DNA from: a virus
Direction: 5' to 3' (one strand)
DNA length: 64,000 bases
Virus record (IMG/VR): IMGVR_UViG_3300005573_000004
Coordinates: 64,001 to 128,000 of that record
The position numbers and the translations under genes are program-made. Of the stretch, positions 6,412 through 52,520 are shown piece after piece. The notes beneath the pieces are model-generated. The model had not been told where the DNA came from, searched no databases, and saw only the letters and a program-made list of their open reading frames with translations. Each line of letters opens with the position of its first letter. Within the stretch, counting starts at the first letter, position 1.

Positions 6412-7575
6412 ATGACAAGACAAGATTTAATTGTAAAAGCATACGTGCATTATGCAGGTATACCAAGATTTGATGATAAGATATTTAAGCAGTTTGTAGG
6501 AGAATTTCCGGAATTGATTCGTGAATTTCCGAAAGCTCAACTACGTCAAATGATTGTACGCGGTGCCGAAGCGTTTAGGGATGAAATTGATCCAGTAATT
6601 GATATTAATGAAATTCGCAAAAATGTTGGGAGAGAAAATACCGAACTTGAGTATTTTTTTAATCATGCTCCTACACGCTTAAAAGCTTTTATTGATCATT
6701 TTAAGACTTTTCCGTTTAAATCGGCATCAAACAAATCTATAGTGAAGAAATCTATTTTAACTGTCTATGGAGAAGATGTTCAAAATCCAGAGTCTACAAT
6801 GAATAAAAATTTAGATAAAGAATTATCCGATATTTTAAATTCTGATGCTACTAATCCGTCCACAACTCCAGAAACTCCAAATACTTCAGATATTTTAGAT
6901 ACTTCAGAGACTAAAAATACTTCCGAAACTACTCTAGGAGAAGATATAAAACCTGAAGGAGAGTCTACGGCAGAGTCTTTACCTCCAGAAATAGAAGACG
7001 AAGCAGTTGCAACGCTAAATGGATATTTACAAAAGGATGTCTTTAATAACAAGCTTATACCAGTAGTAAAAATTGTAGAAGCGTGGAAACTCCAAAACGG
7101 CTATATAGTAACTTTTGAACTTTCCTCCTTAGATAAATCAAAAAAAGTTTATGCGTCAGCTGTTGTTTATAATGATAAATTAGTTCTTCCTGCTGAATTA
7201 CGAGATGAAAATGATCAAGTTATTGGTGAATTTAATAAAGATACTATTCTTAATGTATTTGCTGAGACAGAAAGTGAAATGCCTACTGATTCCGACAATT
7301 ATCAGGATCTTATGAGTGAAATGATAAAAACCAGATCACCAGCAAAAGCGAGTAAAATACTTGATAAGATTATACAGAGATTTGGAGCAGAAGTTGGCAG
7401 AAATGCTTTTGATACTTTTACCAGGGTTAAATATAAGAAAACTTCTGCTGATCCAATTAGACCTGCAGATTTATTAGATGTTAAATTTGCGTCAGATTTC
7501 CCGGATTTAGAGTTTGAAGAAACTATGGATCCAGATACCAAAAAAATTATGGATAATCTAAGGAGGAAGAAATAA
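6412..7575 (+). CDS. Hypothetical protein, probable head-associated
   Basis: SD AAGGAGG; acidic S/T/E-rich linker; KSAS and KFAS motifs. Confidence 0.6.
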   Translation: MTRQDLIVKAYVHYAGIPRFDDKIFKQFVGEFPELIREFPKAQLRQMIVRGAEAFRDEIDPVIDINEIRKNVGRENTELEYFFNHAPTRLKAFIDHFKTFPFKSASNKSIVKKSILTVYGEDVQNPESTMNKNLDKELSDILNSDATNPSTTPETPNTSDILDTSETKNTSETTLGEDIKPEGESTAESLPPEIEDEAVATLNGYLQKDVFNNKLIPVVKIVEAWKLQNGYIVTFELSSLDKSKKVYASAVVYNDKLVLPAELRDENDQVIGEFNKDTILNVFAETESEMPTDSDNYQDLMSEMIKTRSPAKASKILDKIIQRFGAEVGRNAFDTFTRVKYKKTSADPIRPADLLDVKFASDFPDLEFEETMDPDTKKIMDNLRRKK

Positions 7576-8504
7576 TGAAAGTTTATTCTTATAATAATCA
7601 GTTAGTCGCGATCTTAAAAGAAACTCCAGAAACTGTAACATTTATTACTGCATCTGGAGATATAAAAGAGATACCGCAAAGCAAAGCTATAGTAGAAGAA
7701 GCAAAACTTATTACAGCTGGAGTTTATAATGATAAATTTATCCAAGCAGCACTTGGCGGTTTGGTTTCTGCTCCAAAGTATATTAAAAAGACTGGTGGTC
7801 TTATGTTATATGTAGGCAAACACGGTATTGCTTATGTTGAGCCACAGGGAAAAGGTTTAGTTAAGTATGCTATTGGAGTAGATAGTGGTGCATTTGTAAA
7901 TCCAGAAGAAGTTAATAAGAAAAAGATTCCTCACGGTAAAGAACCAGATTGGGATAAAGATAAACTCTTTAAAGAAGACATGAGAAAAGATAACGGCAAG
8001 GGTGGGAAGAATACGAAAAAGCCTATGGATGAAATTGATGATTTAGAAAGTATGGACTCTTCAGTTCCTGAAACTTTAGATATAGCAGATCCGAATGAAC
8101 AACTTGGTCAGGTTAAATCCATAGTATTGAAATGGGATAGTCCTAAAATAGATGGGTCTATTGAAGATATTAAGAGCATGTTTGGGGAAGGAAAACCGCT
8201 TCCAGAACCTACTAGTATTGTTATAGATACTGGTGAGGAACGTATTACAAGTAAGAAAACTTTAAATACAGCTTCTATACAAGAACGTATAAAAACAGCA
8301 CGTTCTGTAGGGGCTCCAGGTTTAGGTCTTACTCCTACTATGTCACATACATGCCCGAAATGTCAAAGTTTATTAATGTATAAATGGGATCCTCAGAAAC
8401 AAGAAACATTATTAGTTTGTCCTGTTTGTGGTTATACGGAAAGATATGAACGAGATGAAGAAACCCAAAGAACGATTCCAATAGAAAAAAGAGAAACCAA
8501 CTAG
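7575..8504 (+). CDS. Hypothetical protein with C-terminal zinc ribbon
   Basis: CPKC...CPVC; TAATG overlap with the previous gene; SD AGGAGG. Confidence 0.7.
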   Translation: MKVYSYNNQLVAILKETPETVTFITASGDIKEIPQSKAIVEEAKLITAGVYNDKFIQAALGGLVSAPKYIKKTGGLMLYVGKHGIAYVEPQGKGLVKYAIGVDSGAFVNPEEVNKKKIPHGKEPDWDKDKLFKEDMRKDNGKGGKNTKKPMDEIDDLESMDSSVPETLDIADPNEQLGQVKSIVLKWDSPKIDGSIEDIKSMFGEGKPLPEPTSIVIDTGEERITSKKTLNTASIQERIKTARSVGAPGLGLTPTMSHTCPKCQSLLMYKWDPQKQETLLVCPVCGYTERYERDEETQRTIPIEKRETN

Positions 8505-27222: not shown

Positions 27223-29985
27223 ATGTATATAAATAGTTCTACTCCTCAAGGACAGTCAAATTTTTACAAAAAGATAGCTTCACAGAAACTTGCAAGAGGC
27301 AATCAAGGATTTACACGTAAAGCTTCAGTATTTGGATATGGTACAGGATCGGATTCTGTTGGTATGCCTCCAGTAGCACTTAGTGGTGGACAGGTTAGCC
27401 GTATGGCTATGAAGCCGTTCAGTCCATTATACCAAGAATCCAATTTAATGTTGCCAAAAGATAGAAAGACAATGAACGCCTACAACAGGCATTATTATGA
27501 AACAGATTATTGGGTTGGGAATATTATTGATTTACATACTTATTATCCACTTGGTGGATTTGATATTATTTCAAAAAATAAAGATCTAGAACGTCTAATG
27601 ATTCGTGCAGCTGATCGTGTAGATTTATTAAACATAGTATTAGGGGTTGGGTTAGAATATTGGGTTTATGGGGAAGCATTTCCGTTCTTAGAATGGGATA
27701 AAAATACTATGATGTGGAGCAGAGCAACTATATTTAATCCTGATTTAATGGAAGTTCGAAGAACCATATTTATGGATAAACCAATTATTACTTTAATTCC
27801 TGATGCTGAATTAAAGAGAATTGTTACTTCTACACACCCAGCGGATGCAGTATTGCGTGAACAAATTCCGAGAGGAGTTTTGGAATATGTTTTAAAAGGT
27901 GAGAATATTCCATTATCATCAAGAAATATATCTCATATTCTTAAAAAGACCGTTCCACACGATTTACGTGGAACTTCTATTATTCAAAGAGTTTGGAAAG
28001 AACTTATGTTACGTGATGCATTCAGAGAAGTATTATTTGTTATTGCTCAAAACCATATTACTCCATTAAAGATATTCAAGATTGGTGGAGTTAATAAAGA
28101 ATATTATCCAAGTTCTGATGAATTAGCAATATGGCAAGGAATTATTGAAGAAGCACAGAACGATCCGAATTTTAGTATTATAACACACGAAGGATTAGAA
28201 GTAGATTATAAGGGTGCAACTGGACAGATTCTAGATGTTCATTCATATTTAGAGCAAATACAAAATAACGTATTGACAGGTTTATTTGCTTCTAAAGCTA
28301 TGACATCTGGTGATGGTCCGTGTTATGATTGTCAAACGGAAGTATTAACTGAAAATGGATGGAAGAAATATGAGGAAGTTTTAGAAAATGAAAGGATAGC
28401 AGTTTTTGATCCTGAAACTCATAAAATAGACTATGAACTTCCAGAAGAGCGGCATTATTGGTTAAATGATGGTAAAAAAGATATGATCCATTTTGAAACT
28501 CAGCATATAGATGTTTGTGTAACTGCAGACCATAATATGCACGTTTTGCGTGACGGTAAATGGATAAAGATTCCTGCACAAGAGGTACGTTTAGGAGATA
28601 AATTTTGTGGACATTTAGAATGGGAAAGTCCAATTGAACCAAAACCTATAGTAATTGGTGATAAGATTATAGATCCAAAAATTTGGATGAAATTTTTGGG
28701 CTATTTTATTTCAGAAGGTTATATTAGTTATAATAAATCAGAACACGAGAACGGACCCAATAGTTTTACTTATCAAATACGTATACCACAGAGTAAATTA
28801 AGAAATCCAGAAACATTTGCAGATATAGAGGAAACGCTAAAGGCTATGGAATTTACTTATTCTATCATAGAGAAATCTCCAAAAGGATCGGAAAGCTATG
28901 ATTTTATTATTTATTCAAAAGAGTTAGTAGAATATTTAGAAGAATTATTTGATGTAGTTCAAATAAATTCGTATACTAAATATATTCCACAAGACTATTT
29001 AATGTGGCCGAAAGAATATTTAAGTTTACTTTTACAAACATTGATGTCTGGAGATAGACATATTCGTTATTCACATAAGAAGAGAGGGCATTATTATGCG
29101 TACTCTACTTGTTCTGAGAAATTGGCTGATTCTATACAAGAACTTATTTTAAAGGTAGGATATTTGCCAACTAAGAGATGGGATCCTTATAGTGGAACTT
29201 CTGGGTTATGGCGTGTATATTACTCAACGAATTCCCCAGATATTGTTACGCCAGGATTAGCTAGTGCAGAACATATAAGTAAACTAGATGGCTATAAAGA
29301 TTATGTATGGTGTTTTAAAATGCCATCAGGTGCTTTTATAACGAGACGTAATGGTAAAATTGGTACACATTTCAATACATATGCAAACGCACAAGTAGCT
29401 TATGAAATTCTTCAGAAGCGTTATGTTTATTTTAGAAATGTTATTGAGAGATGGCTTAAGAATAAATTTTTCCTTCCTATTTCTATTATGCATGGTTTCA
29501 AAAATAAAGAAGGTGGATATGATGTACCACAGATTAAATGGTCTCGTATGGATTTTAATAAAGATGATGCTTGGAGAAATAAAGTTATTGAACTCAATCA
29601 GTCAGAGAAAAAACTTATTTCTGATAGAACTGTTGTTACGGAACTCGGTTTTGATTATGATGAGCAACAGGAACTTATTCAGACAGAACGTATTGCTCAA
29701 CAAGCACAAAAAGAAAAAGCCAAAGCAATGGCTAAAGGAGAAGAAGGTGGAGCTGGTGGTTTAGGAGGTTTAGGTGGAGGTTTAGGTGGAGGTTTGGGAG
29801 GCGGACTTGGAGGTTTAGGTGGAGGTGGAGGTTTGGGTGATTTAGGTGGGGGAGGAGGTTTAGAAGGTCTAGGTGGAGGAGGAGAAGGCGGACCAGAACT
29901 TGGAGGTCTTGGTGGTGGCTTAGAAGGTTTAGGTGGTGGCGGTGAAGGTCCAGAATCAACAGCATTTGGTACACCTGGAGAATAG
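27223..29985 (+). CDS. Portal protein interrupted by an intein; Gly-rich C-terminal tail
   Basis: Follows terL; YWVYGEAFPF and DLRGTSII portal-type motifs; spliced junction GDGP|TYANA. Confidence 0.85.
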   Translation: MYINSSTPQGQSNFYKKIASQKLARGNQGFTRKASVFGYGTGSDSVGMPPVALSGGQVSRMAMKPFSPLYQESNLMLPKDRKTMNAYNRHYYETDYWVGNIIDLHTYYPLGGFDIISKNKDLERLMIRAADRVDLLNIVLGVGLEYWVYGEAFPFLEWDKNTMMWSRATIFNPDLMEVRRTIFMDKPIITLIPDAELKRIVTSTHPADAVLREQIPRGVLEYVLKGENIPLSSRNISHILKKTVPHDLRGTSIIQRVWKELMLRDAFREVLFVIAQNHITPLKIFKIGGVNKEYYPSSDELAIWQGIIEEAQNDPNFSIITHEGLEVDYKGATGQILDVHSYLEQIQNNVLTGLFASKAMTSGDGPCYDCQTEVLTENGWKKYEEVLENERIAVFDPETHKIDYELPEERHYWLNDGKKDMIHFETQHIDVCVTADHNMHVLRDGKWIKIPAQEVRLGDKFCGHLEWESPIEPKPIVIGDKIIDPKIWMKFLGYFISEGYISYNKSEHENGPNSFTYQIRIPQSKLRNPETFADIEETLKAMEFTYSIIEKSPKGSESYDFIIYSKELVEYLEELFDVVQINSYTKYIPQDYLMWPKEYLSLLLQTLMSGDRHIRYSHKKRGHYYAYSTCSEKLADSIQELILKVGYLPTKRWDPYSGTSGLWRVYYSTNSPDIVTPGLASAEHISKLDGYKDYVWCFKMPSGAFITRRNGKIGTHFNTYANAQVAYEILQKRYVYFRNVIERWLKNKFFLPISIMHGFKNKEGGYDVPQIKWSRMDFNKDDAWRNKVIELNQSEKKLISDRTVVTELGFDYDEQQELIQTERIAQQAQKEKAKAMAKGEEGGAGGLGGLGGGLGGGLGGGLGGLGGGGGLGDLGGGGGLEGLGGGGEGGPELGGLGGGLEGLGGGGEGPESTAFGTPGE
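28321..29376 (+). mobile_element. Intein (352 aa) with LAGLIDADG homing endonuclease domain
   Basis: Block A CYDCQTEVLTENGW; block B VTADH; FLGYFISEG and LMSGD; block H SEKLADSIQEL; ends FITRRNGKIGTHFN followed by Thr. Confidence 0.93.
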
Positions 29986-30023
29986 TCATGAATTTCTTTA
30001 ATAACTCATTGCGAGGTGTAGAT

Positions 30024-31154
30024 ATGAAAATATCCAAGGCAGCTGAAATTGCCATAGATTTAGATGGAACTTTAATAGAAGATAGATTTCCGTTTCTTGG
30101 CAAACCTATTGAAGCAAATGTAGAATTGGTGCGTAAATTACACGATGCTGGTTATCGTATTGTAATTTTTACTGCAAGGCTTACTACTAGACCAGGTGAT
30201 AAAGCAAAAATTGAAAAATTTCTACGTGATCGTGATATTCCATTTGATAAAATTACAAATGTAAAACCTAGTACAGCTTCAGTTTTTATAGATGATCGTA
30301 GCATTAATGTTAAATATAATGAAAACTGGCCAAGAAATATTATAGATCGTATTAAAAAGATTATAAAAGACCATAAAGATGCAAAAGCTAAATTAAAAAA
30401 AGCGTCTTTAGAACATCCAGATACAATAGTGTTCAAACCAAATGAATATTATACGCAAGGATTGACAGAACAACAAGTTTTTGATTATTATAATAAGTAT
30501 GCAAATCAAATTGTTGAACAGCTAAAAGATAAACCAGTAATGATTGTGATAAGAACACCTGCTGGAGATATAATTAGAAAGAACGACCCAGCTGATGGAA
30601 CTCTTACTATTTCAAATATTGAAGATTTTAATAATAAATTAAATACAGGTAGAACTATTGAAGTTCATAGAATATTAAAAGACGAAGAAAAATTTGGTCT
30701 TGTAGATGTAGATCCAAGACCGGAAGTACCATTTGAAGATACTAAAAAACTAACCCAAGAATTAGTAGATTTTTTAAAGGAAGCTTTTAATGATATTTTA
30801 GATAACATTCAGGTTTATTTTAGTGGGAATAGAGGATTTCATATATATCTAAATTGGAGAAAAGAGATGAATGTCACTGAAATGCGTCAAGAACTTAGAA
30901 AGGCACTTGAAAATTTTTTAATTCAAAAGAAAGATCCTAAAGTAAAATTAGAATTACCCACTAGAAATGATGAGACCAGGTTAGATATTACAATTTATCA
31001 TCCTGGTGGCTCTATTAGAGTTCCTTATTCTTTACATAAGAAAACAGGTTTAGCTGCTATACCAGTTAATAATATTATGGAATTTGATCCAAAATCGGCT
31101 ATTATTGTAAAATCAAAAGGTAGTTATATTAACCTAAAATTTTTTAAAAAATAA
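30024..31154 (+). CDS. HAD-family phosphatase fused to LigD-type primase-polymerase (AEP) domain
   Basis: DLDGT, FTAR, KP..FIDD (HAD); VFDYY, VDVDP, FSGNRGFHIY, RVPYSL (LigD Pol); SD GAGGTG before ATG 30024. Confidence 0.85.
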   Translation: MKISKAAEIAIDLDGTLIEDRFPFLGKPIEANVELVRKLHDAGYRIVIFTARLTTRPGDKAKIEKFLRDRDIPFDKITNVKPSTASVFIDDRSINVKYNENWPRNIIDRIKKIIKDHKDAKAKLKKASLEHPDTIVFKPNEYYTQGLTEQQVFDYYNKYANQIVEQLKDKPVMIVIRTPAGDIIRKNDPADGTLTISNIEDFNNKLNTGRTIEVHRILKDEEKFGLVDVDPRPEVPFEDTKKLTQELVDFLKEAFNDILDNIQVYFSGNRGFHIYLNWRKEMNVTEMRQELRKALENFLIQKKDPKVKLELPTRNDETRLDITIYHPGGSIRVPYSLHKKTGLAAIPVNNIMEFDPKSAIIVKSKGSYINLKFFKK

Positions 31155-33845: not shown

Positions 33846-33885
33846 TAATATATATTAGAGTGTATTTTTGAAAAGGAGTCTTAAA

Positions 33886-34239
33886 TTGATAGGTTATACT
33901 ATAAATTCTATAAAACGTGCAGAAGTAATGGATGAGATGCCTACTAGTCCTAATCAACAGGGATTAGGTTTTGGGCCTTATCTTGATAATGAGCATCCAA
34001 ACGATGGAGAGAGTCTAGTAGCGATAGAACGTAGCTTTCCAAAACCAACTGGCTGGAAAGCGATTAAAATAAGAAAGCCAAGTGATAAATCTACGATAGC
34101 TTTTGAAGATCTTTTGAGAGTTAGCGAAGAGTTTGAAGATTTAATTAGATTTTTAGTAGATGAATCTCAAGGAGAGACTTTAGAAGAGTCTTTAGCGGAA
34201 CAATTTAAACATTTTCCACGAGTAAATTGGAGTTTATAA
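33886..34239 (+). CDS. Hypothetical head-region protein (TTG start)
   Basis: SD AAGGAG before TTG 33886. Confidence 0.55.
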   Translation: MIGYTINSIKRAEVMDEMPTSPNQQGLGFGPYLDNEHPNDGESLVAIERSFPKPTGWKAIKIRKPSDKSTIAFEDLLRVSEEFEDLIRFLVDESQGETLEESLAEQFKHFPRVNWSL

Positions 34240-37849: not shown

Positions 37850-38881
37850 ATGCAGATAATTAAAACAGGTACAGGATTTGACAGAAGGGCAGATGTATCC
37901 TTCGGCAGAGATGGCAACATCAATGCTTTTGATAGACAGGATGCAATCAATCGTATTGCAAAATATTTAACTGCAAGCGAACAGCCCACTTATGATGAGA
38001 GAGTGTCTTCGTTATTTTCTGAAGAAGAAAAAAACCACCTAATTAACAAATTTGCATCACCAAACGTAAGGTTAGTAATTGGACAGGCAATGGCCAGTCC
38101 ATTAAAAACGTTCTTAGAATACAAGGGCGTTATGAGACGTGCATTAAAAGTTGATCCGCTTGCTCCAGGTGCTATTCCGATTTACGATCGTGATACAGAA
38201 GAAATTTCAGCTGAGCCGATTGCTTCCCAGTCAGCAATTACTCAGACGAAAATAGTTGGGGAACGTATCATGGTCCCAGTTTTTGAAATCGCAGCGAACC
38301 CAACTATAAAACTGCGTGAGGTTAAAATTCGCAGATTTAACATAATTGACCGTATACAAGTTCGTACACGTCAATTTATGCAGGAAGCTGAAGACGCAAG
38401 TATTATAAACTTGTTAAATGCAGCTTCTACTTTGGTTAACTCTCCAGTTGTAGTTGACACTTCTGCAAGTGGAAACTCACAGGGTTATATCCAGAGAAAA
38501 GACTTGGTCAAGCTTGCTCGAGAAATTGAACAGCATGACTTATTTGCAGTATCTATGTTCTTTTCAATTTACAGATATGCAGATATCAAACAGTGGGGTA
38601 CACAAGAATTGGATCTTGTAACCTTAAAACAGGTTATAGATACAGGTCTTGTAGCTCAGTTACATGGGCAGAATATCTATGTGACAAAGAAATTGCCACA
38701 TGATATAGTACTCTGCACTTCAGATCCTGACTATGTTGGCGTGATGCCAGTATATCAGGATATTGAAGTAATCCCTGCTGATATTCCTTGGGAAACCTCA
38801 TTCGGATGGGCGTTCACAGAGCTCATTGGAATGTCGGTATTTAACCCGAAGGGCGTCAGTAAGTTAGTTATTTCAAAATAA
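37850..38881 (+). CDS. Major capsid protein, HK97 fold, encapsulin (Linocin_M18)-like
   Basis: PLKTFLEYKGVMRRAL, VPVFEIAANPTI, RFNIIDR..QEAED, E..G..V.NP.GV; position after scaffold and decoration genes. Confidence 0.88.
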   Translation: MQIIKTGTGFDRRADVSFGRDGNINAFDRQDAINRIAKYLTASEQPTYDERVSSLFSEEEKNHLINKFASPNVRLVIGQAMASPLKTFLEYKGVMRRALKVDPLAPGAIPIYDRDTEEISAEPIASQSAITQTKIVGERIMVPVFEIAANPTIKLREVKIRRFNIIDRIQVRTRQFMQEAEDASIINLLNAASTLVNSPVVVDTSASGNSQGYIQRKDLVKLAREIEQHDLFAVSMFFSIYRYADIKQWGTQELDLVTLKQVIDTGLVAQLHGQNIYVTKKLPHDIVLCTSDPDYVGVMPVYQDIEVIPADIPWETSFGWAFTELIGMSVFNPKGVSKLVISK

Positions 38882-40660: not shown

Positions 40661-42235
40661 ATGAGCTTTGTAAATTTCAAAAGATTAAGTAGTATAATTG
40701 ATTATCCTAGGAGTGGTCTAGATAGTAAAGTTTGGACTACTCAAGGGATTTTAAAACCTAGAATTAAAGATTTTATTTTAAAAAAATTAGATAAGTTTTT
40801 TAGAAGTAAAGGATATACATTAAATGAAATTTTAAGTGCAGTTAATGCTGTATATTTTATAGGTTCTTTGACATCTTATCAATATACAGATAAGACAGAT
40901 TTGGATATTCATTTCCATTTTGATCAGAATAAGATAAAAGATGTATTAAGAAGACACGGTCAAATAGTAAAATCTAATGAAGAGCTTGATGAGATATTAA
41001 ATAAAGAATGGAAAGATGCTATTGATGAAGATATAATACCTGGAACTCAACATCCTCTTGAAGTTTATTTTGAAATTGACGGGTTTACAAAGAGTGATAA
41101 TAGTGATGGAGTTTATGATATTCTTAACGATAAATGGTTAAAAGAACCCCCTTCTATTGAGGATGATTTTGATGTAGAAGAGATATATCCAGCAGCAGTA
41201 GACGAAGCAATTGATATTATGAGGAATATTGATGATAAAATTGGACATATAAAGCGTGAGATAAAAGATATTAGTCTTTTAAAGGAAACTCTTAGATCTT
41301 GGGATAAAGGTAAGAAAAAATTATTTTTTAAAAAGCTCTTAGATAAAATAGATACAATAGAAAAATCAATACGAGATATAGTAGAGATGGGTTCTGAAAT
41401 TATAGATAATAGACAAGATGATTACGTAAAACAATCAGAAGATAATATTAAATTTAAATATTTACAGAGATATAAATATATTTGGCTTGTTAAAAATCTG
41501 GAAGATGCTTTAGAAGATGAAAAAGAAAAAATTCAAGTTGAAGATGATGATGATATTGAGAGAATTAGGATAATTTTGAAAGAATTTGAAGATAAAGATA
41601 CGAGTAAAGATATAGAATTTGAAAAAAAGGAGAGTAAAATGAGTTTTATAAATTTTAAAAAATTAGGTTTAGGTTTTGGTTTGGGTCCTGGTGCAGGATT
41701 CGGGTTAGGTCCTGGTGTAGGAAGAGGTTTAGGTCCTGGTGCAGGTTTAGGTCCTGGTGTAGGAAGAGGTTTAAATCCTGGTGTAGGAAGAGGTTTAGGT
41801 TTAGGTCCTGCAGGATTAGGAAGAGGTTTAGGCCCTGGTGCAGGACTCGGTTTATGTTTGGACCAAGATGTAGGACTTACACCTTCCGATCCTACTTTAG
41901 TACAACCAGATGTTTCTATAGAGGTTCCTAAAGAAGTTTTTCCAGAAACTCTTCCAGAAGGTTCGTCAGCGACTTCTTTAGAAATTCCTTCTGGAATACC
42001 TGAAGGAAGAGAAAGAGATTATGAAATTTTAAAAAGAGATATCATATTGGAGCAAGCAGCTATTGACGAATATCGTGGACAACTTAGGGATGCTTCTCCA
42101 GAAGTCAAAAAGATATTGGAACATTTAATTAAGGAAGAAGAGGAACATAGGAAAGAATTGGAAGAATTAATAGAAGAAATAAAATCTAAACCGTCAGGCA
42201 ATACAACGGACGAAATCAAAGTTATAGAATTGTAA
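40661..42235 (+). CDS. Pol-beta-type nucleotidyltransferase fused to Gly-rich repeats and a ferritin-like helix pair; internal in-frame start at 41639
   Basis: [23 protein letters not shown] and GVYDI..WLK..P; GLGPG repeats; E..AI..Y...L.HL..EE.EH; SD AAGGAG before ATG 41639. Confidence 0.8.
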
Positions 42236-42263
42236 TTCTAAGTTCTTTTATAATTTTTTCATA

Positions 42264-42437
42264 ATGAAAAAACTGAACAAAGAGAAAATTGAAAAATGTG
42301 AAATGTGCGGTATGTTCACAGTCGAGACTATTAAAGTAGTAGGTCCAAAAGGTTTCGTGCATTTGTGTGTTTCTTGTTATAATAAATTTTTTAAAAACAG
42401 ATATAAAAAGTCAAATAGGAGTTCAGAACATGAATAA
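42264..42437 (+). CDS. 57-aa zinc-finger protein (CEMC...CVSC), below the ORF-track cutoff
   Basis: Manual translation MKKLNKEKIEKCEMCG...LCVSCYNK. Confidence 0.6.
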   Translation: MKKLNKEKIEKCEMCGMFTVETIKVVGPKGFVHLCVSCYNKFFKNRYKKSNRSSEHE

Positions 42438-43269
42438 TAATTATTTAAAACAATTAAAAGCTGCAAATATGTGGTTACGTAGAATAGCAGTACGAACACC
42501 GGAACAGACTGTAAAACAAATTTTATCTGATCTTAGAAAAGTTAATAAAGAATTAAAAGATATTCGTGCTGCTGTAAAAGATGGAAAATATTCAGAAATT
42601 TCTGAACAAGTTCAAGCTGCTATTTCTTATTTACAAGCTATTGACCACGTATCAAAATCTCCAACTGCAAAAGCTATAGAAGAAAAACGTGAGAAAAATC
42701 TAGCAAAAAATATATCTGAAACTAATGAAGAAGATGAAGATGATGAATCAGAAGAAACAGATAAAGCAGATGAGTCAGAAGAAACGGATGAGGATATAGA
42801 TAGATCTTTAGGACTAGGATTTTTAACTACAAAGTCTAGACTTTTATCTATTATTAAGAATTCTGCAAAAGATTTTCCTACATCTTGGGAAGAGCCTATG
42901 ATGGAAATTAAAGGTTCTATGAAAGTTGAGATAGTACCTCAAGGAAATGATGAATATTTAATTAAAGGATATTGGATGACAGATCCAAAATTTAAAGCAG
43001 AGAAAAAAATTAAAGGATTAGATCAGATAAGTAATGCTATTATAGAACTTGAATATATGATTTTAGATCAAAAACCTTTAAAACCTGGAAATTCTTCTAA
43101 TAAGACAAGTTCTAGTATTAATTTTGATAAACTTGGTAGAATTGTAAAAGAAAAAGGCGGATATTACGTCAAAAGTGAAAAAGGTAAAAATCTTGGTGGG
43201 CCATATAAAACCAAAGAAAAAGCGAAAAAAAGGCTTCGCCAAGTAGAATATTTTAAACATAGAGGGTGA
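42430..43269 (+). CDS. Multi-domain hypothetical protein with C-terminal basic mini-domain
   Basis: SD AGGAG before ATG 42430; ends SSINFDKLG-RIVKEKGGYYVKSEKGKNLGGPYKTKEKAKKRLRQVEYFK. Confidence 0.65.
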   Translation: MNNNYLKQLKAANMWLRRIAVRTPEQTVKQILSDLRKVNKELKDIRAAVKDGKYSEISEQVQAAISYLQAIDHVSKSPTAKAIEEKREKNLAKNISETNEEDEDDESEETDKADESEETDEDIDRSLGLGFLTTKSRLLSIIKNSAKDFPTSWEEPMMEIKGSMKVEIVPQGNDEYLIKGYWMTDPKFKAEKKIKGLDQISNAIIELEYMILDQKPLKPGNSSNKTSSSINFDKLGRIVKEKGGYYVKSEKGKNLGGPYKTKEKAKKRLRQVEYFKHRG

Positions 43270-43273
43270 TTAA

Positions 43274-43591
43274 ATGTCCAGTTTTATAAATTTCAAAAAA
43301 TTGGCCTCGATGAGTTCTAATAAAATAAGAAAAATTTCTACTAATTTGTTGGAATGGATAGAAAACACAAAAAAGATGAATGAGAAATATCCAAGTCTTG
43401 TCAATTTTTTAGAAGCGGTAAAGGAACATTATTTGAGGAATTTTAGTGATGATCCAAAAATAAGACAGATGGGGATTTCTCTTGAACAAGCTAAGAATAT
43501 AATTTCTTCTGCTCTTGGCAGACATAAAGAATATAATTTAGATTTTCAAGCGTTACATAATGCAACAGAAACATATTTTTCAAAAGACTAA
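43274..43591 (+). CDS. SFxNFKK-tagged hypothetical protein
   Basis: Starts [12 protein letters not shown]. Confidence 0.65.
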   Translation: MSSFINFKKLASMSSNKIRKISTNLLEWIENTKKMNEKYPSLVNFLEAVKEHYLRNFSDDPKIRQMGISLEQAKNIISSALGRHKEYNLDFQALHNATETYFSKD

Positions 43592-43612
43592 CTACTAAAT
43601 TTGAGGTGTTTT

Positions 43613-43966
43613 ATGGAAGATGCACAGCTTAAGTTAATTTTAGAATCTTTAAAAGAATTAAAAGATGAGGTTAAATCTATTAAAAAGCTCCTAAATGGAA
43701 ACGGAGAAATTGGTTTATTAGAAGCTCATAGAGATTTAGAGCAAAAATTTACTAGTGTTAGCGTAAGAGTTCGTGCTATTGAAGAAGATGTTAAACCATT
43801 AAAAGAGTCTTCTTTTAAAAGAAATACATTAAAAGAATTTGTCAAACAAATTGGGGTTATTTTAGCAACTATGTCGCCTATCATAATTCCTACGCTTATT
43901 TGGATGACAAAAATTTGGGACAAACTTAATCAGTTAGTTCCATTGGATACAGTTATTAGAAAATAA
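43613..43966 (+). CDS. Coiled-coil plus single-TM protein (possible holin-like)
   Basis: LNGNGEIGL, coiled coil, C-terminal hydrophobic helix; SD GAGGTG. Confidence 0.5.
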   Translation: MEDAQLKLILESLKELKDEVKSIKKLLNGNGEIGLLEAHRDLEQKFTSVSVRVRAIEEDVKPLKESSFKRNTLKEFVKQIGVILATMSPIIIPTLIWMTKIWDKLNQLVPLDTVIRK

Positions 43967-43983
43967 AAGGAAATAAAAAATTT

Positions 43984-44433
43984 ATGAGTTTTATCAATTT
44001 TAAAAAAATGACAAAAATATCTAAAGAATGGTTTCCGAATTTGGAACCACACGAACAATATTCATATGTTACTTCTCATAGTAACCAGCCAGAATTACTA
44101 AAAGAGTTATATCCTAGTGCAAAAGATGATATAACTCGTTTGGAAATAGTAAATATAACTGGAGATAGTGATCTTGCAGAAAGATTATTTATTAATACTA
44201 AATATCCGTTAATAAAAGCACGTCTTGTTCCTTTTATAAAAAATAAGGAGTTATTAAGAGACTTTTTTGTATCGTATATTAATTCTGCAGAAGCATTACG
44301 AAAAGTTAAAACACGTTTAACGGATGAACAAAATAGAGCTTTAATCCAAAGTATGAAAGAACTTCATTTGTTGCCTGATAATATAAATACAGAGTTTGAA
44401 GATATGAAAAAAAGAAATCCAATGATAGACTAA
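43984..44433 (+). CDS. SFxNFKK-tagged helical protein
   Basis: Starts MSFINFKKM. Confidence 0.65.
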   Translation: MSFINFKKMTKISKEWFPNLEPHEQYSYVTSHSNQPELLKELYPSAKDDITRLEIVNITGDSDLAERLFINTKYPLIKARLVPFIKNKELLRDFFVSYINSAEALRKVKTRLTDEQNRALIQSMKELHLLPDNINTEFEDMKKRNPMID

Positions 44434-44449
44434 GGAGGATAAAAGGTAT

Positions 44450-45340
44450 ATGTTTACTAAAATTGCAGAATCAGCAATTATAGATATTAAATCAAAACCT
44501 TTAAATTTGTTTGAAGAATTAGCACAAAGGCACGCTACAGAATATGCCAAAGTTGCTACATTGGGAGAGGAAGATATTCGTAAACAGAATTATAATTTAT
44601 ATAGAACTATAGCAGAAAAGAAACCGAATCTGTTAGCTTTTGCAACTCGTGCTATTTCTGCATATGAAACTTGGGGTCCAAACAAGAATGGAGATGCTTT
44701 TGAACGTGCAGAATTAGAAAAATATTATCCTACATTTTTTATGCGTCCGCATTTATTGGACCACAGGATGGAGATCCCATATATTCGTGGAATGATAGCT
44801 GGAAGTTATTGGCGTCCTTTAACAAAAACGGCATCTAATAGACCAGATGGAGATTATGTAGAGACTTTAATTTTTGTAAATAGAGATGATTTTCCAAAAT
44901 ATGCATCAATGGTAGAAAACGGTACTGTAAATTCGTTTTCTATGGGTGTCGAAGTTCAAGAAGCTGAGTGTAGTCATTGTCATAACATAGCCAGAAATCC
45001 ATCGGAACTCTGTGAATGTGTTTCAAGGTTAAAAAATTTAGTAGTTGGAGGGCGTAAAGTTTTCGAATTTAACCGTGGTTTGAATTTTATTGAACAATCT
45101 GCTGTAGTAAGTCCAGCTGATGTTGATTCACATACTTTGTATATTTTAGCTAGTGTAAAAAATACAGCTCATCAAGATGTAGAAAGATTAAAAAAGATAG
45201 CTTCTGTACTTGATAGTTATTCAGAAACTGAAAAACAAATAAGACGATACGAATATCAGATGTTAGAAGCATATGCCAATCAATTGGCAGATAAGATAAT
45301 GCTCGATTTAAATATTCTTCCAAGGAGGCCCAATTTATGA
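44450..45340 (+). CDS. Putative prohead (capsid maturation) serine protease with Cys-cluster insert
   Basis: NKNGDAF, LLDH (His), FSMG (Ser), CSHC..C.C and EQSAVVSPAD, an HK97-type protease layout. Confidence 0.78.
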   Translation: MFTKIAESAIIDIKSKPLNLFEELAQRHATEYAKVATLGEEDIRKQNYNLYRTIAEKKPNLLAFATRAISAYETWGPNKNGDAFERAELEKYYPTFFMRPHLLDHRMEIPYIRGMIAGSYWRPLTKTASNRPDGDYVETLIFVNRDDFPKYASMVENGTVNSFSMGVEVQEAECSHCHNIARNPSELCECVSRLKNLVVGGRKVFEFNRGLNFIEQSAVVSPADVDSHTLYILASVKNTAHQDVERLKKIASVLDSYSETEKQIRRYEYQMLEAYANQLADKIMLDLNILPRRPNL

Positions 45341-46491
45341 GCTTTGTAAATTTTAAAAGAATTGCAGCAGAAAGGAAAGTTAGAGCTTTATGGAGACGTG
45401 CGAACCAGAATTTGCCTTTGTTTTTGTCACAGTTAGAAGACACTTTTCAATCACCAGAGGTTAAGAAAAAGTTTCAAGATTTAAAGAAAAGATATCTTGA
45501 GAATCAGATTGCTGAAAAACTGCTTTTACAAGAATTAACCAAACTTTTAGAAGAAGATATGAATTATATAGATAAGACGCAACACGAACAAGATAAAAAT
45601 CTTTTTGCTCCACCTATATCAAATCCAAAAACATCTAGATCAACATTTAGAAATACTCGTTTACTAACTGCCGAACAGTTTAATCTTTTATGGAAGTTTT
45701 CAGGTTTTGATATTTTATCTTTCTTATTAAAATTAAAGAATTTAGTAAAAGATCCTCAAAGTATAAAAGAATTGGACGCTTTAAAAAAAGCATATTTAGC
45801 TAATAAAATGGACGAAAAGACTATTTTAAATAGAGTTCAATATATATTAGATAAAGATATGGCTTATACGGATGCTTTTTATCGTCAAAGAGATAGAGAA
45901 TTATTTTCTCCAAAAACTAACAAAGCCAGTTCTTTATATAATCGTAGATTAGTTATTGCAAATTTATGGAAACGCGCCGATAAGGATCCTATAGTTTTTT
46001 TAGATGAATTGATAAATAATAATACATTTCAGACTCCAGAAGTGTTAGAACAAGCTAAAGCTTTAAGAGCTAAAGCTGATAAAATGGATAAACGTGTCCT
46101 TCTTGATAAAATACAAAAATTACTAGATGAAGATGCTGAATTGTCTCTAGAATCTGCAAAAGATAGAGATATAGAAATAGCTAAAAAGGATCCATTTTAT
46201 GCTAGACAGTATGAGACTCCTGACTATGACTTTACAAATACAGATACAGAAGAATGGTCACCAGAGGATTATAACGTTATAAATATTTTTGAATCTAATA
46301 ATAAAAAAAGTTCTAATTTTAAAAATAAAAGATATATTTTTGGAGAAGAAATATCAGATGAAGATTTAAATAGTATACCTACTGATCCAGATAAAATTTC
46401 TGATTTTGCGCAAAAGAAGAGAGAGTTGGCAGATAAAGCGGAAGAAATAGGAAAGATTTTGCAGGAATTGAAGCAATTGAAAAAACAATAG
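45337..46491 (+). CDS. SFxNFKR-tagged protein with three tandem ~95-aa helical repeats
   Basis: LW..., F L..L, LD.D.. repeats separated by S-x-x-N-x-R linkers. Confidence 0.7.
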   Translation: MSFVNFKRIAAERKVRALWRRANQNLPLFLSQLEDTFQSPEVKKKFQDLKKRYLENQIAEKLLLQELTKLLEEDMNYIDKTQHEQDKNLFAPPISNPKTSRSTFRNTRLLTAEQFNLLWKFSGFDILSFLLKLKNLVKDPQSIKELDALKKAYLANKMDEKTILNRVQYILDKDMAYTDAFYRQRDRELFSPKTNKASSLYNRRLVIANLWKRADKDPIVFLDELINNNTFQTPEVLEQAKALRAKADKMDKRVLLDKIQKLLDEDAELSLESAKDRDIEIAKKDPFYARQYETPDYDFTNTDTEEWSPEDYNVINIFESNNKKSSNFKNKRYIFGEEISDEDLNSIPTDPDKISDFAQKKRELADKAEEIGKILQELKQLKKQ

Positions 46492-46502
46492 GAGTATAAC
46501 TT

Positions 46503-47399
46503 TTGTTTGGATATCTGCATAGTTTCATCAGACAGGCATTTATCAGAGAGATCCAGAATTTATTGGATGAACATCCGTTTTATACTAGATCAAAAGATTC
46601 TGGATTTCAACGTTCTCCTGTAGTAGTTTCAGAGAAATATAATTTTGATGGCAGACAATTTCCAGCGGTAATTGTTGATACTTCTAGTGCTTCAGAATTT
46701 AGGCTAGATTTTACTAATTTTATTGAAGATGTTTATGGGAACGTAAGATTAACAAGTATAATTCCTTACGTAGTAACCAAAGTAGAAACAGATAAAACTT
46801 ATTCTAAGCCTAGAACTGACAATGTATATGGATTGCAATTTGTTAATATTGGTCGAGATAATAAACGAGAAATTAATCTAAGAGTGTCTGATGGAAATGC
46901 AGGAACATATAGCTATTTTGCTGTAAAGCCTTGGGAAGTAAGAAATGATATTATACCTGGTGCAATATTGTTCTTTGGAAGTTTTAATGATATAGAACCT
47001 GGTAAAGTAATTTATATTGAAACTTTTAAAGACACTACTATACTTGGCGAATTATATGGAAAAGGTTTTGATTTTTCTATAAGTATAAATGTTTATGCCC
47101 AATCACAAAACGAAGCAAAGGAATTAACAGATTTAATAAACGCTTATGGAGTGTATATTCTTCCACAGCATCTACATAATGCTCATGGTTTTGTATTAAA
47201 ATCTATGAAAACAGATGGTGTGATTGAAAAAGATGGAGAATTAGGTGAAGAAGTATTTAAAGGTGGATTTAGCGTTGATCTTTGGACTGAACATCAGTTT
47301 TTTGTTCCAGTTGATAGAGCTGAGAGTTATACACTTTGGGTAGAATTACGTGAACGTGTAGATCATTTGGTGAACCAATTATGGCAATACACGGAGTGA
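46503..47399 (+). CDS. Putative tail terminator/completion protein
   Basis: FPAVIV and ISINVYAQS..EAKELTDLI motifs; neck region. Confidence 0.55.
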   Translation: MFGYLHSFIRQAFIREIQNLLDEHPFYTRSKDSGFQRSPVVVSEKYNFDGRQFPAVIVDTSSASEFRLDFTNFIEDVYGNVRLTSIIPYVVTKVETDKTYSKPRTDNVYGLQFVNIGRDNKREINLRVSDGNAGTYSYFAVKPWEVRNDIIPGAILFFGSFNDIEPGKVIYIETFKDTTILGELYGKGFDFSISINVYAQSQNEAKELTDLINAYGVYILPQHLHNAHGFVLKSMKTDGVIEKDGELGEEVFKGGFSVDLWTEHQFFVPVDRAESYTLWVELRERVDHLVNQLWQYTE

Positions 47400-48163: not shown

Positions 48164-48499
48164 ATGAAAGATTTTCAAAGAATGTATAAAGCATTAAATG
48201 TTAATCCAGGAGAAACTAAAACACTTGTTATTAGTAGAACTGAAGCTGTTAATAATAAATTTGCTTTTGTCTTTAGTGGAGTTGGTTCAGGTGATTTATA
48301 TCAATATGCAAAAATATGGATATTAGCTGGAGCGGCAGATAAAAAAGTTAATTTGACAGATTGTTTAGATATTATTTTAGATTGTGGTGATGCCGGATGT
48401 ATTCTTACAGTGGACTTTCCAATAGTAAGTGATATTGAAATATCTATTACTGGTCCAAGTAACGGTTTATCACTAGGTGTTCATGCAGGAAATGATTAA
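48164..48499 (+). CDS. Small beta-rich protein, tandem paralog A
   Basis: Near-identical ends to 48536..48877. Confidence 0.7.
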   Translation: MKDFQRMYKALNVNPGETKTLVISRTEAVNNKFAFVFSGVGSGDLYQYAKIWILAGAADKKVNLTDCLDIILDCGDAGCILTVDFPIVSDIEISITGPSNGLSLGVHAGND

Positions 48500-48535: not shown

Positions 48536-48877
48536 ATGAAAGATTTTCAAAGGATGTATAAAGCATTAAATGTTAATCCAGGAGAAACTAAAACACTTAT
48601 TATTAGTAGAACTGAAGCTGTTAATAATAAATTTGCTTTTGTCTTTAGTGGAGTTGACCGTTCGGATGTAATAAATCATGCAAAAATATTGATAACGGCT
48701 GGAGCTGAGGATAAAAAAATTGATTTAGTACAATGTGGAAGTCGTGTTTTAGCTTGCGGTTTTCATGCGTGTATTCTTGTAGTAGATTACCCTATAATGA
48801 GTGATATTGAAATAATACTTATTGGGCAGCAAAGAAGTGGTGTTATATCACTAGGTGTTCATGCAGGAAATGATTAA
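48536..48877 (+). CDS. Small beta-rich protein, tandem paralog B
   Basis: Near-identical ends to 48164..48499. Confidence 0.7.
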   Translation: MKDFQRMYKALNVNPGETKTLIISRTEAVNNKFAFVFSGVDRSDVINHAKILITAGAEDKKIDLVQCGSRVLACGFHACILVVDYPIMSDIEIILIGQQRSGVISLGVHAGND

Positions 48878-50801: not shown

Positions 50802-52520
50802 ATGGCATACACATCGCCAGGCGTTAGAATTACAAATCAATTTCAACCACTTGCAAATCCGGCTGTAGGTGGCGACAGATTATTAGCTATTGTAGGGAAA
50901 ATACCAACAAATCCAAATCTTTTTCCAAGATTGAATGTTGAGGCTAGGAGAGCAAATTCAAACCCAGATGCAATAACATTTTTAGTACCGGATCCATCTT
51001 TAGGTACTATCTCAGATAATCAGCGTGTAGTACGTATATGGCAAGGAGGTACACGATATAATCCAGCTCCGGCAGACCATATTTATACAGTAACTCACGG
51101 ATCATCAGGTGGTACAGATACTATAACTACTACTTTATCAACTCCAGCTTCAGGTGCAAATGTTCTTGCTGTATATAGCAAAGTAGGAACAAGCTTTGTT
51201 AAATATATAGCAGGGACAGATTATACTTTTACTTTATCCAACGGATCAGGAGGCGAATTACAAGTAACTATTGATTGGTCGCCGTCCGGAAGTGAACCAC
51301 CAGCAAATGAAGATTATGTTGTAGTTATTGAAGATTCGTCTGTAGATTATACATATGCAGTAGATGATACTGTGGAAGGTAAAGTGACTGTATATGTATA
51401 TTGGGGTACAATTTCTAGTAATAAACCAGAGACTGGATCTGCTTATATGGCTACTGTAATATTACCATTTCCATATGATAGACAGATTATTACGTCTACA
51501 GATGAAGCATATCGTATGTTTGGACCGGTATTGGACCCGACAAATCCAGATCCTTCAAATGCATTTTATATTAATGAATTAGCAATGGCAGCTTATTTGG
51601 CATTTAACGAAGGTGCTGGACAAATTATGCTTGTTCCGTATGATACAACTACATTAACATATGAAGCTGCTCTTGATTTGCTTAAATCGGATGATTTACC
51701 AAATATTATAACAGGTATTGATTCAACGGTAATTCAATCTGGTAATCCATCATTAAATAACAAAATTATTAATCATGTTGAAGATGCTAGTTCTCAGCAG
51801 TTTCAGAAATTTCGTATTGGGATTTTAAATCCGTCAGTTGGAGATTTCAATGATGCTAAAAGTAAATATGCTAATATGGTAGCACTTGCAGATTCTCGTC
51901 GTATAATTATAGTAGGACCATCGCAATTAACTTTTAAAATTCCTATACCAGGAACAGGTGAATATGTAGATTTTAAAACAGATGGTGGTTATGGTGGAGT
52001 AATTTTAGGAGCTATGATGAGTCGTATTGAATATGATTTAGCAACTTCTATGTTACGTAAACCTTCTCGTACTATTTTTAAGGTTCGTAAAGATCAAGAA
52101 TGGGATGATAGGAAATTAGATATTATTGCAGCTTTAGGTATTACATTATTTCAGAAAATGGATGGAGTTTATAAATGCCGTGAAGATATAACGACATCTC
52201 AATCTGGAACAATTTTTGAAGCCGAACCGACTATTACTATGATTTCTGATAATATTGCAAAATCTGCTATTAAGGTATTAGATGCAACAGTTATTGGAAC
52301 TAAACTTTTATTGCCTACAACATTAGAAAATATAAAAGCACGACTCATAAGTATGTTGGAAAATAAAGCAAAGGCTCCATCTATTATTATAGGTTATGGA
52401 TCACCAGAGATTTCAGTAGATAGTACTGATCCTAGAAAAATTAATGTAGTTATTCCAGTTCAACCAGTTCAGAAAGTTAGAGAAATCAATGTTACATTTA
52501 GTTATGTAGCATCACTATAA
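50802..52520 (+). CDS. Contractile tail sheath protein
   Basis: MAYTSPGVRI N-terminus; C-terminal DPRKINVVIPVQPV..INVTF; inserted Ig-like (GTDY) domains. Confidence 0.9.
   Translation: MAYTSPGVRITNQFQPLANPAVGGDRLLAIVGKIPTNPNLFPRLNVEARRANSNPDAITFLVPDPSLGTISDNQRVVRIWQGGTRYNPAPADHIYTVTHGSSGGTDTITTTLSTPASGANVLAVYSKVGTSFVKYIAGTDYTFTLSNGSGGELQVTIDWSPSGSEPPANEDYVVVIEDSSVDYTYAVDDTVEGKVTVYVYWGTISSNKPETGSAYMATVILPFPYDRQIITSTDEAYRMFGPVLDPTNPDPSNAFYINELAMAAYLAFNEGAGQIMLVPYDTTTLTYEAALDLLKSDDLPNIITGIDSTVIQSGNPSLNNKIINHVEDASSQQFQKFRIGILNPSVGDFNDAKSKYANMVALADSRRIIIVGPSQLTFKIPIPGTGEYVDFKTDGGYGGVILGAMMSRIEYDLATSMLRKPSRTIFKVRKDQEWDDRKLDIIAALGITLFQKMDGVYKCREDITTSQSGTIFEAEPTITMISDNIAKSAIKVLDATVIGTKLLLPTTLENIKARLISMLENKAKAPSIIIGYGSPEISVDSTDPRKINVVIPVQPVQKVREINVTFSYVASL

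Follow-up and report, generated by a model that had tools for sequence, protein, structure and literature searches.

A ten-residue leader peptide shared by unrelated proteins around the prohead protease gene of a tailed phage: a candidate signal for capsid targeting and processing

We analyzed a stretch of 64,000 nucleotides (positions 64,001 to 128,000 of the IMG/VR record IMGVR_UViG_3300005573_000004), which forms the central part of the complete record of an uncultured phage, 149,961 bp long with terminal repeats. This whole stretch is referred to as the window, and coordinates are window coordinates unless a relative is named. Within it, the gene for the major capsid protein (37850..38881, plus strand) is followed by two genes without an assigned function (39053 and 39657), by an array of genes on the plus strand (40661-44433) tagged with one and the same short peptide, by the gene for a prohead serine protease (44450-45340, plus strand), and by a further tagged gene for a 384-aa protein, the start of which (45337) overlaps the protease stop codon. 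The subject of this study is the shared peptide, which we call the leader. An alignment of 16 N-termini gave the consensus M-S-[FY]-[IV]-N-[FL]-K-[KR]-[LIM]-[ASG]. Beyond position 10 the sequences could not be aligned, and the leader is a unit of ten residues with a hydrophobic residue at position 9 and a small one (A/S/G) at position 10.

Copies and anatomy of the leader

When the complete genome was translated in all six frames, the strict motif S-F-[IV]-N-F-K-[KR] appeared five times, always on the plus strand (positions 40664, 41642, 43280, 43987, and 45340). Judged by amino acid composition, the proteome should contain 4.8e-4 copies and its N-termini 3.6e-6, and the mean number in 100 codon-shuffled genomes was 0.01. 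The leader is repeated far beyond chance. A genome-wide scan with a position matrix built from 21 leader copies of five phages returned, at a score of ≥ 11, only the five strict copies and a degenerate copy at 43111. True copies scored 19-27, whereas shuffled proteomes reached up to 17. All six copies lie within 4.7 kb around the prohead protease gene, and none was found in replication, tail or other genes.

A preliminary description of the window had reported that the motif starts four unrelated open reading frames (ORFs), that it also follows an internal ATG with a Shine-Dalgarno sequence at 41639, that a related copy precedes the last domain of ORF 42430, and that codons differ between the copies. 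The coordinates given there for the ORFs and the motif copies all hold, and these four observations were reproduced: the motif directly follows the ATG of ORFs 40661, 43274 (with one extra Ser), 43984, and 45337, and BLASTP detected no relationship between the bodies of the tagged proteins, orthologues in other phages excepted. The genome-wide enrichment check proposed in the same description showed the motif to be confined to the head module and absent from replication and tail genes. Two weaker variants that it had listed have to be dropped: S-N-F-Y-K-K-I-A of the portal scored -2.6, which is noise, and S-Y-I-N-L-K at the C-terminus of the protein encoded by ORF 29988 scored 6.4, well within the range of the shuffled proteomes. 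Neither of them is kept in the more distant relatives L016 and L007.

The conservation of the leader was compared at the level of residues and codons in 22 copies from five phages. Asn5 was invariant and encoded 11 times each by AAT and AAC, Ser2 was encoded by AGC, AGT, TCT or TCA, and in all but one of the 22 copies (21) position 10 was occupied by S, G, A or T, for which ten different codons were used. As every copy is in frame, the codons vary while the residues are fixed, and the DNA upstream of the copies is not conserved, this pattern indicates that selection targets the leader peptide and not the DNA. Copies located within ORFs without any start codon are conserved as well, and the only further near-match at the DNA level in the window is antisense, has three mismatches and cannot be read as the peptide.

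Many carriers have Gly/Pro/Ser-rich stretches behind the leader, including Gly-rich linkers behind the copy at 41639 and in the relatives behind those of L013 5214 and L002 7897. Internal copies sit between domains, and stretches rich in K, S, G, N and P are present upstream of them. No hydrophobic core of a signal peptide follows the leader. In an AlphaFold2 (AF2) model of the nucleotidyltransferase part of ORF 40661, residues 1-30 had a predicted local distance difference test (pLDDT) score of 25-33 and almost no secondary structure, which is what a free leader would be expected to show in such a model. The model was computed from a single sequence, and with a pLDDT of 50 it was too poor for a fold search. 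Complex prediction with the capsid protein and a 36-residue leader alignment gave a score of 0.00, which weighs neither for nor against binding.

A scan of IMG/VR with the back-translated leader detected, beyond the known relatives, only one unrelated phage family, in which the heptapeptide is located near the C-terminus of a conserved protein. Among 185,579 species genomes, scanned with Ser as AGY codons only, 29 scattered singletons were obtained, mostly in short non-coding frames, and neither an L27 nor a relative of prophage type was among them. Searching the full-text literature for the leader strings of either this phage or Bacillus phage G (see below) gave no paper that mentions them.

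A separate observation concerns ORF 33868-34239, located upstream of a gene for an 829-aa acidic protein. After its likely TTG or ATG start it encodes Y-T-I-N-S-[IL]-K-R, which is conserved in the orthologues of L001, L003, and L008, followed by P-T-S-P-N-Q-Q-G-L-G-F-G, which resembles the linker behind leader copy 2. This N-terminus, with a matrix score below noise, may be a diverged leader.

Tagged proteins, protease and scaffold-like protein

The first tagged ORF (40661..42235, plus strand) encodes 524 residues and combines leader copy 1 (40661..40690, matrix score 26.8), a nucleotidyltransferase domain, an internal leader, a Gly-rich linker, and a half-ferritin domain. The nucleotidyltransferase domain covers about residues 20-206 and contains the signature G-S ... 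D-x-D. The N-terminal part of the protein matched phrog_36119 (E 1e-9), and its nearest Atlas clusters were viral PF01909 families (score 0.97), while a sequence search of the PDB with this part found nothing. By these sequence features, one candidate cargo is a nucleotidyltransferase domain of the Pol-beta type. An identical layout was found in the 489-aa homologue P0002.

Leader copy 2 (41639..41668, plus strand) lies in frame within the same ORF, behind an ATG with a separate, strong Shine-Dalgarno sequence, AAGGAGAG, 6 nt upstream. This ATG is likely a nested start giving rise to a 198-aa protein of leader, linker and ferritin domain, since the internal copies that begin with Met (41639 and L001 7809) have Shine-Dalgarno sequences matching those of real genes. 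A flexible stretch rich in Gly, Pro and Leu (approximately 41669..41880) links this leader to the ferritin domain (42023..42196), which corresponds to the C-terminal 60 residues of the ORF. A library-wide profile search identified 45 relatives of this domain. In an alignment of 15 family members E29, Y36, E58, and H61 were invariant, which are the E, Y and E-x-x-H residues of the iron site. The family profile matched the PDB entries of EncC (4e-14), Pyrococcus furiosus EncFtn (2e-12), NE0167 (3e-12), Rhodospirillum rubrum EncFtn (3e-10), EncB (5e-10), and a bacterioferritin (1.5e-25). The Pfam family EncFtn-like (PF22277) matched 10 of the 15 family members, and the domain of the window itself matched Rubrerythrin with 26.8 bits, above the cut-off. 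Based on sequence and iron-site residues, we assign it as an EncFtn-like two-helix half-ferritin. The domain is fused behind the nucleotidyltransferase in the window, whereas in L001 it forms a stand-alone gene of 82 aa consisting of leader, short linker and domain. A homologue search with this 82-aa gene retrieved only itself.

The next ORF (42430..43269, plus strand, 279 aa) has no leader at its N-terminus. It contains the degenerate internal copy S-S-S-I-N-F-D-K-L-G (43108..43137, plus strand, score 18.8) before its last domain, which is basic and comprises 45 residues. A copy with a score of 21.6 is present at the same place in L001, where the orthologue (L001 7041-8072) additionally carries a full leader and a domain of 86 residues. 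Leader copy 3 (43274-43306) starts a 105-aa ORF (43274..43591, plus strand) with orthologues in L001 and L002, and copy 4 (43984-44013) starts a 149-aa ORF (43984..44433, plus strand), the orthologues of which in the same two phages have diverged leaders with I-N retained. Neither ORF has an assigned function, and searches of the other tagged proteins against Pfam and PHROGs identified no family.

The gene at 44450..45340 encodes a protein without leader that matched phrog_18299 (E 4.7e-10), was 32% identical to gp19 of phage G and had Peptidase_S78/S77/S80 as Atlas leads, whereas a PDB sequence search returned nothing. By its sequence membership and its position in the head module, it is classified as a prohead (head maturation) serine protease of the MEROPS S77/S78 clan. 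At about residues 180-200 it contains a Cys/His-rich insert with C-x-x-C ... C-x-C, which is also present in the protease of a third lineage described below. The insert is possibly a zinc ribbon, which would be unusual for this protease clan.

Leader copy 5 (45337-45366) starts the 384-aa protein encoded directly after the protease (45337..46491, plus strand). Its AF2 model was all-alpha (pLDDT 60) and comprised three four-helix modules in tandem, with a further helix at the C-terminus, all connected by low-confidence linkers. The modules, which number three to four, align with each other, and each of them opens with a leader-related segment, only the first of which is canonical. The internal module openers had matrix scores below 0. 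We call this protein scaffold-like because of the all-alpha model, its poor conservation and its location where scaffold genes sit. The capsid protein was 40% identical to the major head protein of phage G (E 2e-63). Compared with that annotated protein, it has about 52 extra residues at its N-terminus (37850-38005), which are conserved among the relatives and contain no canonical leader. This extension may be a short propeptide.

Leaders in close relatives and in distant lineages

Searches of IMG/VR and JGI contigs with the capsid protein and the protease yielded the relatives L001/L004, L002/L008, L013, and L016, the capsid proteins of which were 70-90% identical. In L001, L002/L008, L013, and L016 every copy with a score of ≥ 17 was located between the capsid gene and the gene following the protease, and no such copy was found among the tail genes or within 10 kb upstream, on the portal side. 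After removal of the leader, the carriers of the related phages fell into at least 12 families that were unrelated by BLASTP, with only orthologues being linked. The gene content of the tagged array differs between these phages: L002 has five tagged ORFs, four of which lack a homologue in the window, and L013 has two other tagged ORFs ahead of its homologue of gene 39657. In L016, the leader occurs as the variant S-[YL]-V-N-L-K-K, of which five copies are contained within a single 607-aa ORF, and one of the internal copies stands before a zinc ribbon, for which the window has a gene of its own, 57 aa long and untagged. As the internal copies of L016 have no Met, they must act within the chain. 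Four leader copies were likewise present in P0006 (643 aa), and an IMG/VR search for loci related to P0006 and P0009 found nothing. A further observation was made in L002, where ORF 7043-7891 ends with S-S-F-I-V-F-E-K-L-S (7862-7891) directly before its stop codon and the true leader of gene 7897 begins six bases further on. The segment 7862-7891 looks like the scar of a recombination between leader-coding segments.

A short leader was present on nearly all library proteins homologous to the ferritin domain. It was of the same kind in P0002, P0003, and P0006, and in others it had the form M-W-[LF]-K/T-x-x-A. In a third, GC-richer lineage, represented by three IMG/VR contigs of 90-147 kb with 47-54% GC (3300037264_003220, 3300032053_000009, and 3300031999_001882; loci L027, L028, L029, and L073), homologues of both cargo domains of the window were found inside ORFs of 1,089 to 2,444 residues. 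Here, M-(S)-W-T-K-T-A starts at least eight small ORFs and M-[ST]-F-I-D-F-T-G starts two ORFs. The tagged ORFs are located directly upstream of a protease-scaffold fusion, which is 36-41% identical to the protease of the window, and of a capsid protein homologue.

Bacillus phage G (L026, NC_023719), which has a homologous capsid protein and protease, uses another leader, M-K-R-L-x-K-K-[SAG]. It starts at least 11 ORFs (positions 16055, 28218, 39023, 73330, 81748, 147654, 207449, 254652, 255160, 258975, and 446709 of that genome), including gp17, gp38 and, directly after the protease gp19, gp20. On the plus strand of phage G, K-R-L-x-K-K occurred 16 times compared with six times for the reversed pattern used as control. 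If the leader evolves together with a partner that is specific to each lineage, distant relatives would be expected to have such leaders of their own.

The tagged array is embedded in a head and tail module. Upstream of the capsid gene are located the genes for the large terminase (25421), the portal (27223-29985) and, directly after it, a protein combining a HAD domain with a LigD primase-polymerase domain (29988-31154), followed by those for the 829-aa acidic protein (34403) and a decoration-like protein (37045). Head-completion and tail genes begin at 46503, with the sheath at 50802. Several features of these genes are recorded here in their own right. The portal contains an insertion of about 335 residues (residues ~370-718), which the portals of L008, L016, L006, and L007 lack. 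The insertion begins with Cys, ends with H-F-N followed by Thr and includes a LAGLIDADG_3 domain (E 5e-8), and it is, judged from these features, most likely an intein with a homing endonuclease. The fusion of HAD phosphatase and LigD primase-polymerase has the reversed domain order in L016. Between the head-completion genes and the 628-aa ORF preceding the sheath, two tandem paralogues of 111 and 113 aa (48164-48499 and 48536-48877) share identical first 20 residues. A scan of the 185,579 species genomes with the capsid protein gave no relative and hence no clue to the host.

Possible roles of the leader

On balance we lean toward the reading that the leader resembles the capsid-targeting sequence (CTS) of phage T4 in function and that it doubles as a cleavage site. 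A combination of docking and processing is suggested because the scaffold-like protein is itself tagged, because the hydrophobic-small end is conserved, and because the leader is repeated between the domains of polyproteins. In this model, the leader would be a portable peptide of the head-assembly module, of which the scaffold-like protein bears the canonical copy at its N-terminus and degenerate copies as module openers. A changing set of accessory proteins, such as the nucleotidyltransferase, the EncFtn-like ferritin, several proteins of unknown fold and, in one relative, the zinc ribbon, would have acquired it, usually together with a flexible linker behind it. Tagged cargo would then mimic the N-terminus of the scaffold and be built in along with the scaffold core while the capsid shell grows. 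The candidate partner is whatever binds the scaffold N-terminus, which may be the capsid protein with its inner face, the protease, or the scaffold itself. Once the head is assembled, the prohead serine protease, whose gene lies amid the array, would cut the hydrophobic-small junction between positions 9 and 10, which would free single-domain cargo of its leader and split polyprotein-like cargo into its domains. The processed cargo would stay in the head and might be ejected together with the DNA.

The preliminary description had interpreted the motif as a modular addressing tag that loads many proteins into the prohead. Its modular nature, its conservation as a peptide, its confinement to the head module and its many unrelated carriers stand, but a pure address label does not fit, because of the hydrophobic-small end, the copies inside polyproteins and the scaffold-like repeats that open with the peptide. 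These features point to a leader that also, and perhaps mainly, serves cleavage or assembly. Several points weigh against the combined targeting and cleavage function as well. Encapsidation, binding partner and cleavage are inferred from sequence, and the putative cleavage position is read from the conserved small residue at position 10. The protease and the capsid protein have no leader, and several copies per polyprotein would not be needed for addressing alone. The ORFs starting with the phage G leader are scattered over the whole 497-kb genome, beyond the head genes, which fits dispersed virion genes and equally fits a function outside the head.

The closest parallel is found in the T-even phages, whose internal proteins are diverse and have only the conserved CTS in common (PMC3012670). 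CTS propeptides comprise 10-20 residues (PMC5694885), and in T4 the CTS guides proteins to the core of the scaffold, after which it is cleaved away (PMC3012670, PMC5694885). The leader resembles the CTS of IPI-III, Alt, and gp24 in being a short N-terminal peptide common to unrelated, fast-changing accessory head proteins, in the location of the carrier genes next to an S77/S78-clan prohead serine protease, and in its persistence among related phages whose cargo genes differ. The T4 CTS is cleaved at hydrophobic-x-Glu, whereas the leader, which is unrelated in sequence, contains no Glu and has K-K-hydrophobic-small, making it an analogue and not a homologue. It further differs in that the scaffold-like protein itself is tagged and that the leader is repeated inside polyproteins. 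We would rather expect than not that the T4 capsid-targeting principle operates here too, in another lineage of phages and by means of a peptide of unrelated sequence. A capsid signal at the N-terminus is also known for DarB of phage P1, the first 30 residues of which suffice to load a reporter into the capsid (PMC9024508). That signal is known for one protein and not from a shared leader family, and its sequence is dissimilar.

Ribosomal protein L27 and phage 80alpha provide a second parallel, from which the strongest competing explanation follows. The L27 leader that is removed by Prp has the form M-L-x-x-(D/N)-L-Q-(F/L)-F'A-(S/H)-K-K (PMC9405229), and in 80alpha an L27-type leader is present on the capsid and scaffold proteins, with that of the scaffold being required for assembly (PMC5744158, PMC9405229). 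The peptide described here could accordingly be a leader for protease recognition and cleavage alone, cut by the phage prohead protease or by a host protease of the Prp type, with polyproteins being cut into domains at each copy. We regard this as unlikely, though worth serious attention. Length and register agree with the L27 leader, i.e., nine residues followed by a small one, where position 5 is invariantly N or D (here Asn) and positions 4, 6, and 9 are hydrophobic. As in 80alpha, the leader is common to non-homologous structural proteins including the scaffold, and the internal copies in L016 and P0006 resemble processing sites of a polyprotein. However, positions 7-8 are K-K/R instead of Q-F, and an F-F to A-A exchange makes the 80alpha scaffold uncleavable (PMC5744158). 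The phage genome, to which this search was confined, encodes no Prp homologue (PF04327); it encodes a prohead protease of its own, which 80alpha lacks. The leader is found on many accessory proteins and not on the capsid protein, and in none of the 185,579 species genomes did L27 start with the exact motif in the scan limited to AGY codons for Ser. Finally, the leader on the stand-alone 82-aa protein would have no obvious use if it served cleavage only.

An improbable alternative is that the leader is a homotypic assembly element, namely the first helix of a self-packing scaffold module, so that the tagged proteins would be parts of the scaffolding core and not cargo docked to the shell. The related segment at the opening of each scaffold-like module and the AF2 model, in which residues 6-21 form the first helix of the four-helix module, agree with this. 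In the cargo proteins, however, the leader is followed by Gly/Pro-rich linkers and not by the rest of the module, and the module openers have diverged below detection whereas the cargo leaders are nearly invariant. Even less probable is a role outside the head, for example that early or accessory proteins are localized, secreted or recognized by a chaperone through the leader during infection. The analogous leader of phage G starts ORFs genome-wide and most tagged proteins have no known function, but in this genome and four close relatives every copy belongs to the head module, including that of the scaffold-like protein, and nothing like the hydrophobic core of a signal peptide follows the leader. 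We give hardly any credence to a DNA or RNA signal (a recombination joint of cassettes, a promoter or a translation enhancer) with the peptide as a by-product, for although the five window copies fit one low-degeneracy 24-nt consensus and the leader-like end of the L002 gene right before the next gene's leader resembles a recombination remnant, all copies are in frame with fixed residues and freely varying synonymous codons, those without a start codon are still conserved, and the sole other near-match of the window, antisense and with three mismatches, does not encode the peptide.

Returning to the leader as a signal for targeting and cleavage, the principle as such is known from the T4 CTS, P1 DarB, the 80alpha leaders and the loading peptides of encapsulins. 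What appears to be new is this particular peptide, its place on a scaffold-like protein and its use inside polyproteins, and likewise the parallel lineage-specific leaders in phage G and the third lineage and the EncFtn-type domain as a candidate cargo of a phage head. With encapsulin systems the locus has in common a short terminal peptide and a flexible linker on the cargo, an HK97-fold shell and, as one cargo domain, an EncFtn-like half-ferritin with the E/Y/E-x-x-H iron-site residues. It differs in that it belongs to a complete tailed phage, which encodes a terminase, a portal, a sheath and a protease, and not to a DNA-free compartment, and in that the peptide is N-terminal or internal and unrelated in sequence; binding of this peptide to the shell is a proposal. 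A more far-reaching idea, which we put forward tentatively and consider doubtful, is that the procapsid works like an encapsulin, with a leader shared with the scaffold loading enzymes such as an EncFtn-type ferroxidase and a nucleotidyltransferase inside an HK97-fold shell, and that lineage-specific leaders (S-F-V-N-F-K-K-L here, M-K-R-L-x-K-K in phage G, and M-W-T-K-T-A in the third lineage) constitute a general, undescribed addressing and processing code of large phages.

If this were true, the locus would represent a living link between scaffold and cargo loading in phages and cargo loading in encapsulins. Independently of this idea, a portable handle of ten residues with which arbitrary proteins could be loaded into the capsid of a thermophilic phage would be a ready tool for protein encapsulation, and it would also show that the principle of the T4 internal proteins is widespread and evolves in the form of lineage-specific peptide codes. 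As phage G can be cultured and carries a leader too, the idea of a loading leader is accessible to virion mass spectrometry. The EncFtn-like cargo matters most. In 2026, a paper about how HK97-fold viruses and encapsulins evolved explicitly raised the question whether viral genomes encode cargo-related proteins that co-assemble in procapsids (PMC13669383), and the locus described here is a concrete and testable candidate for such a case.

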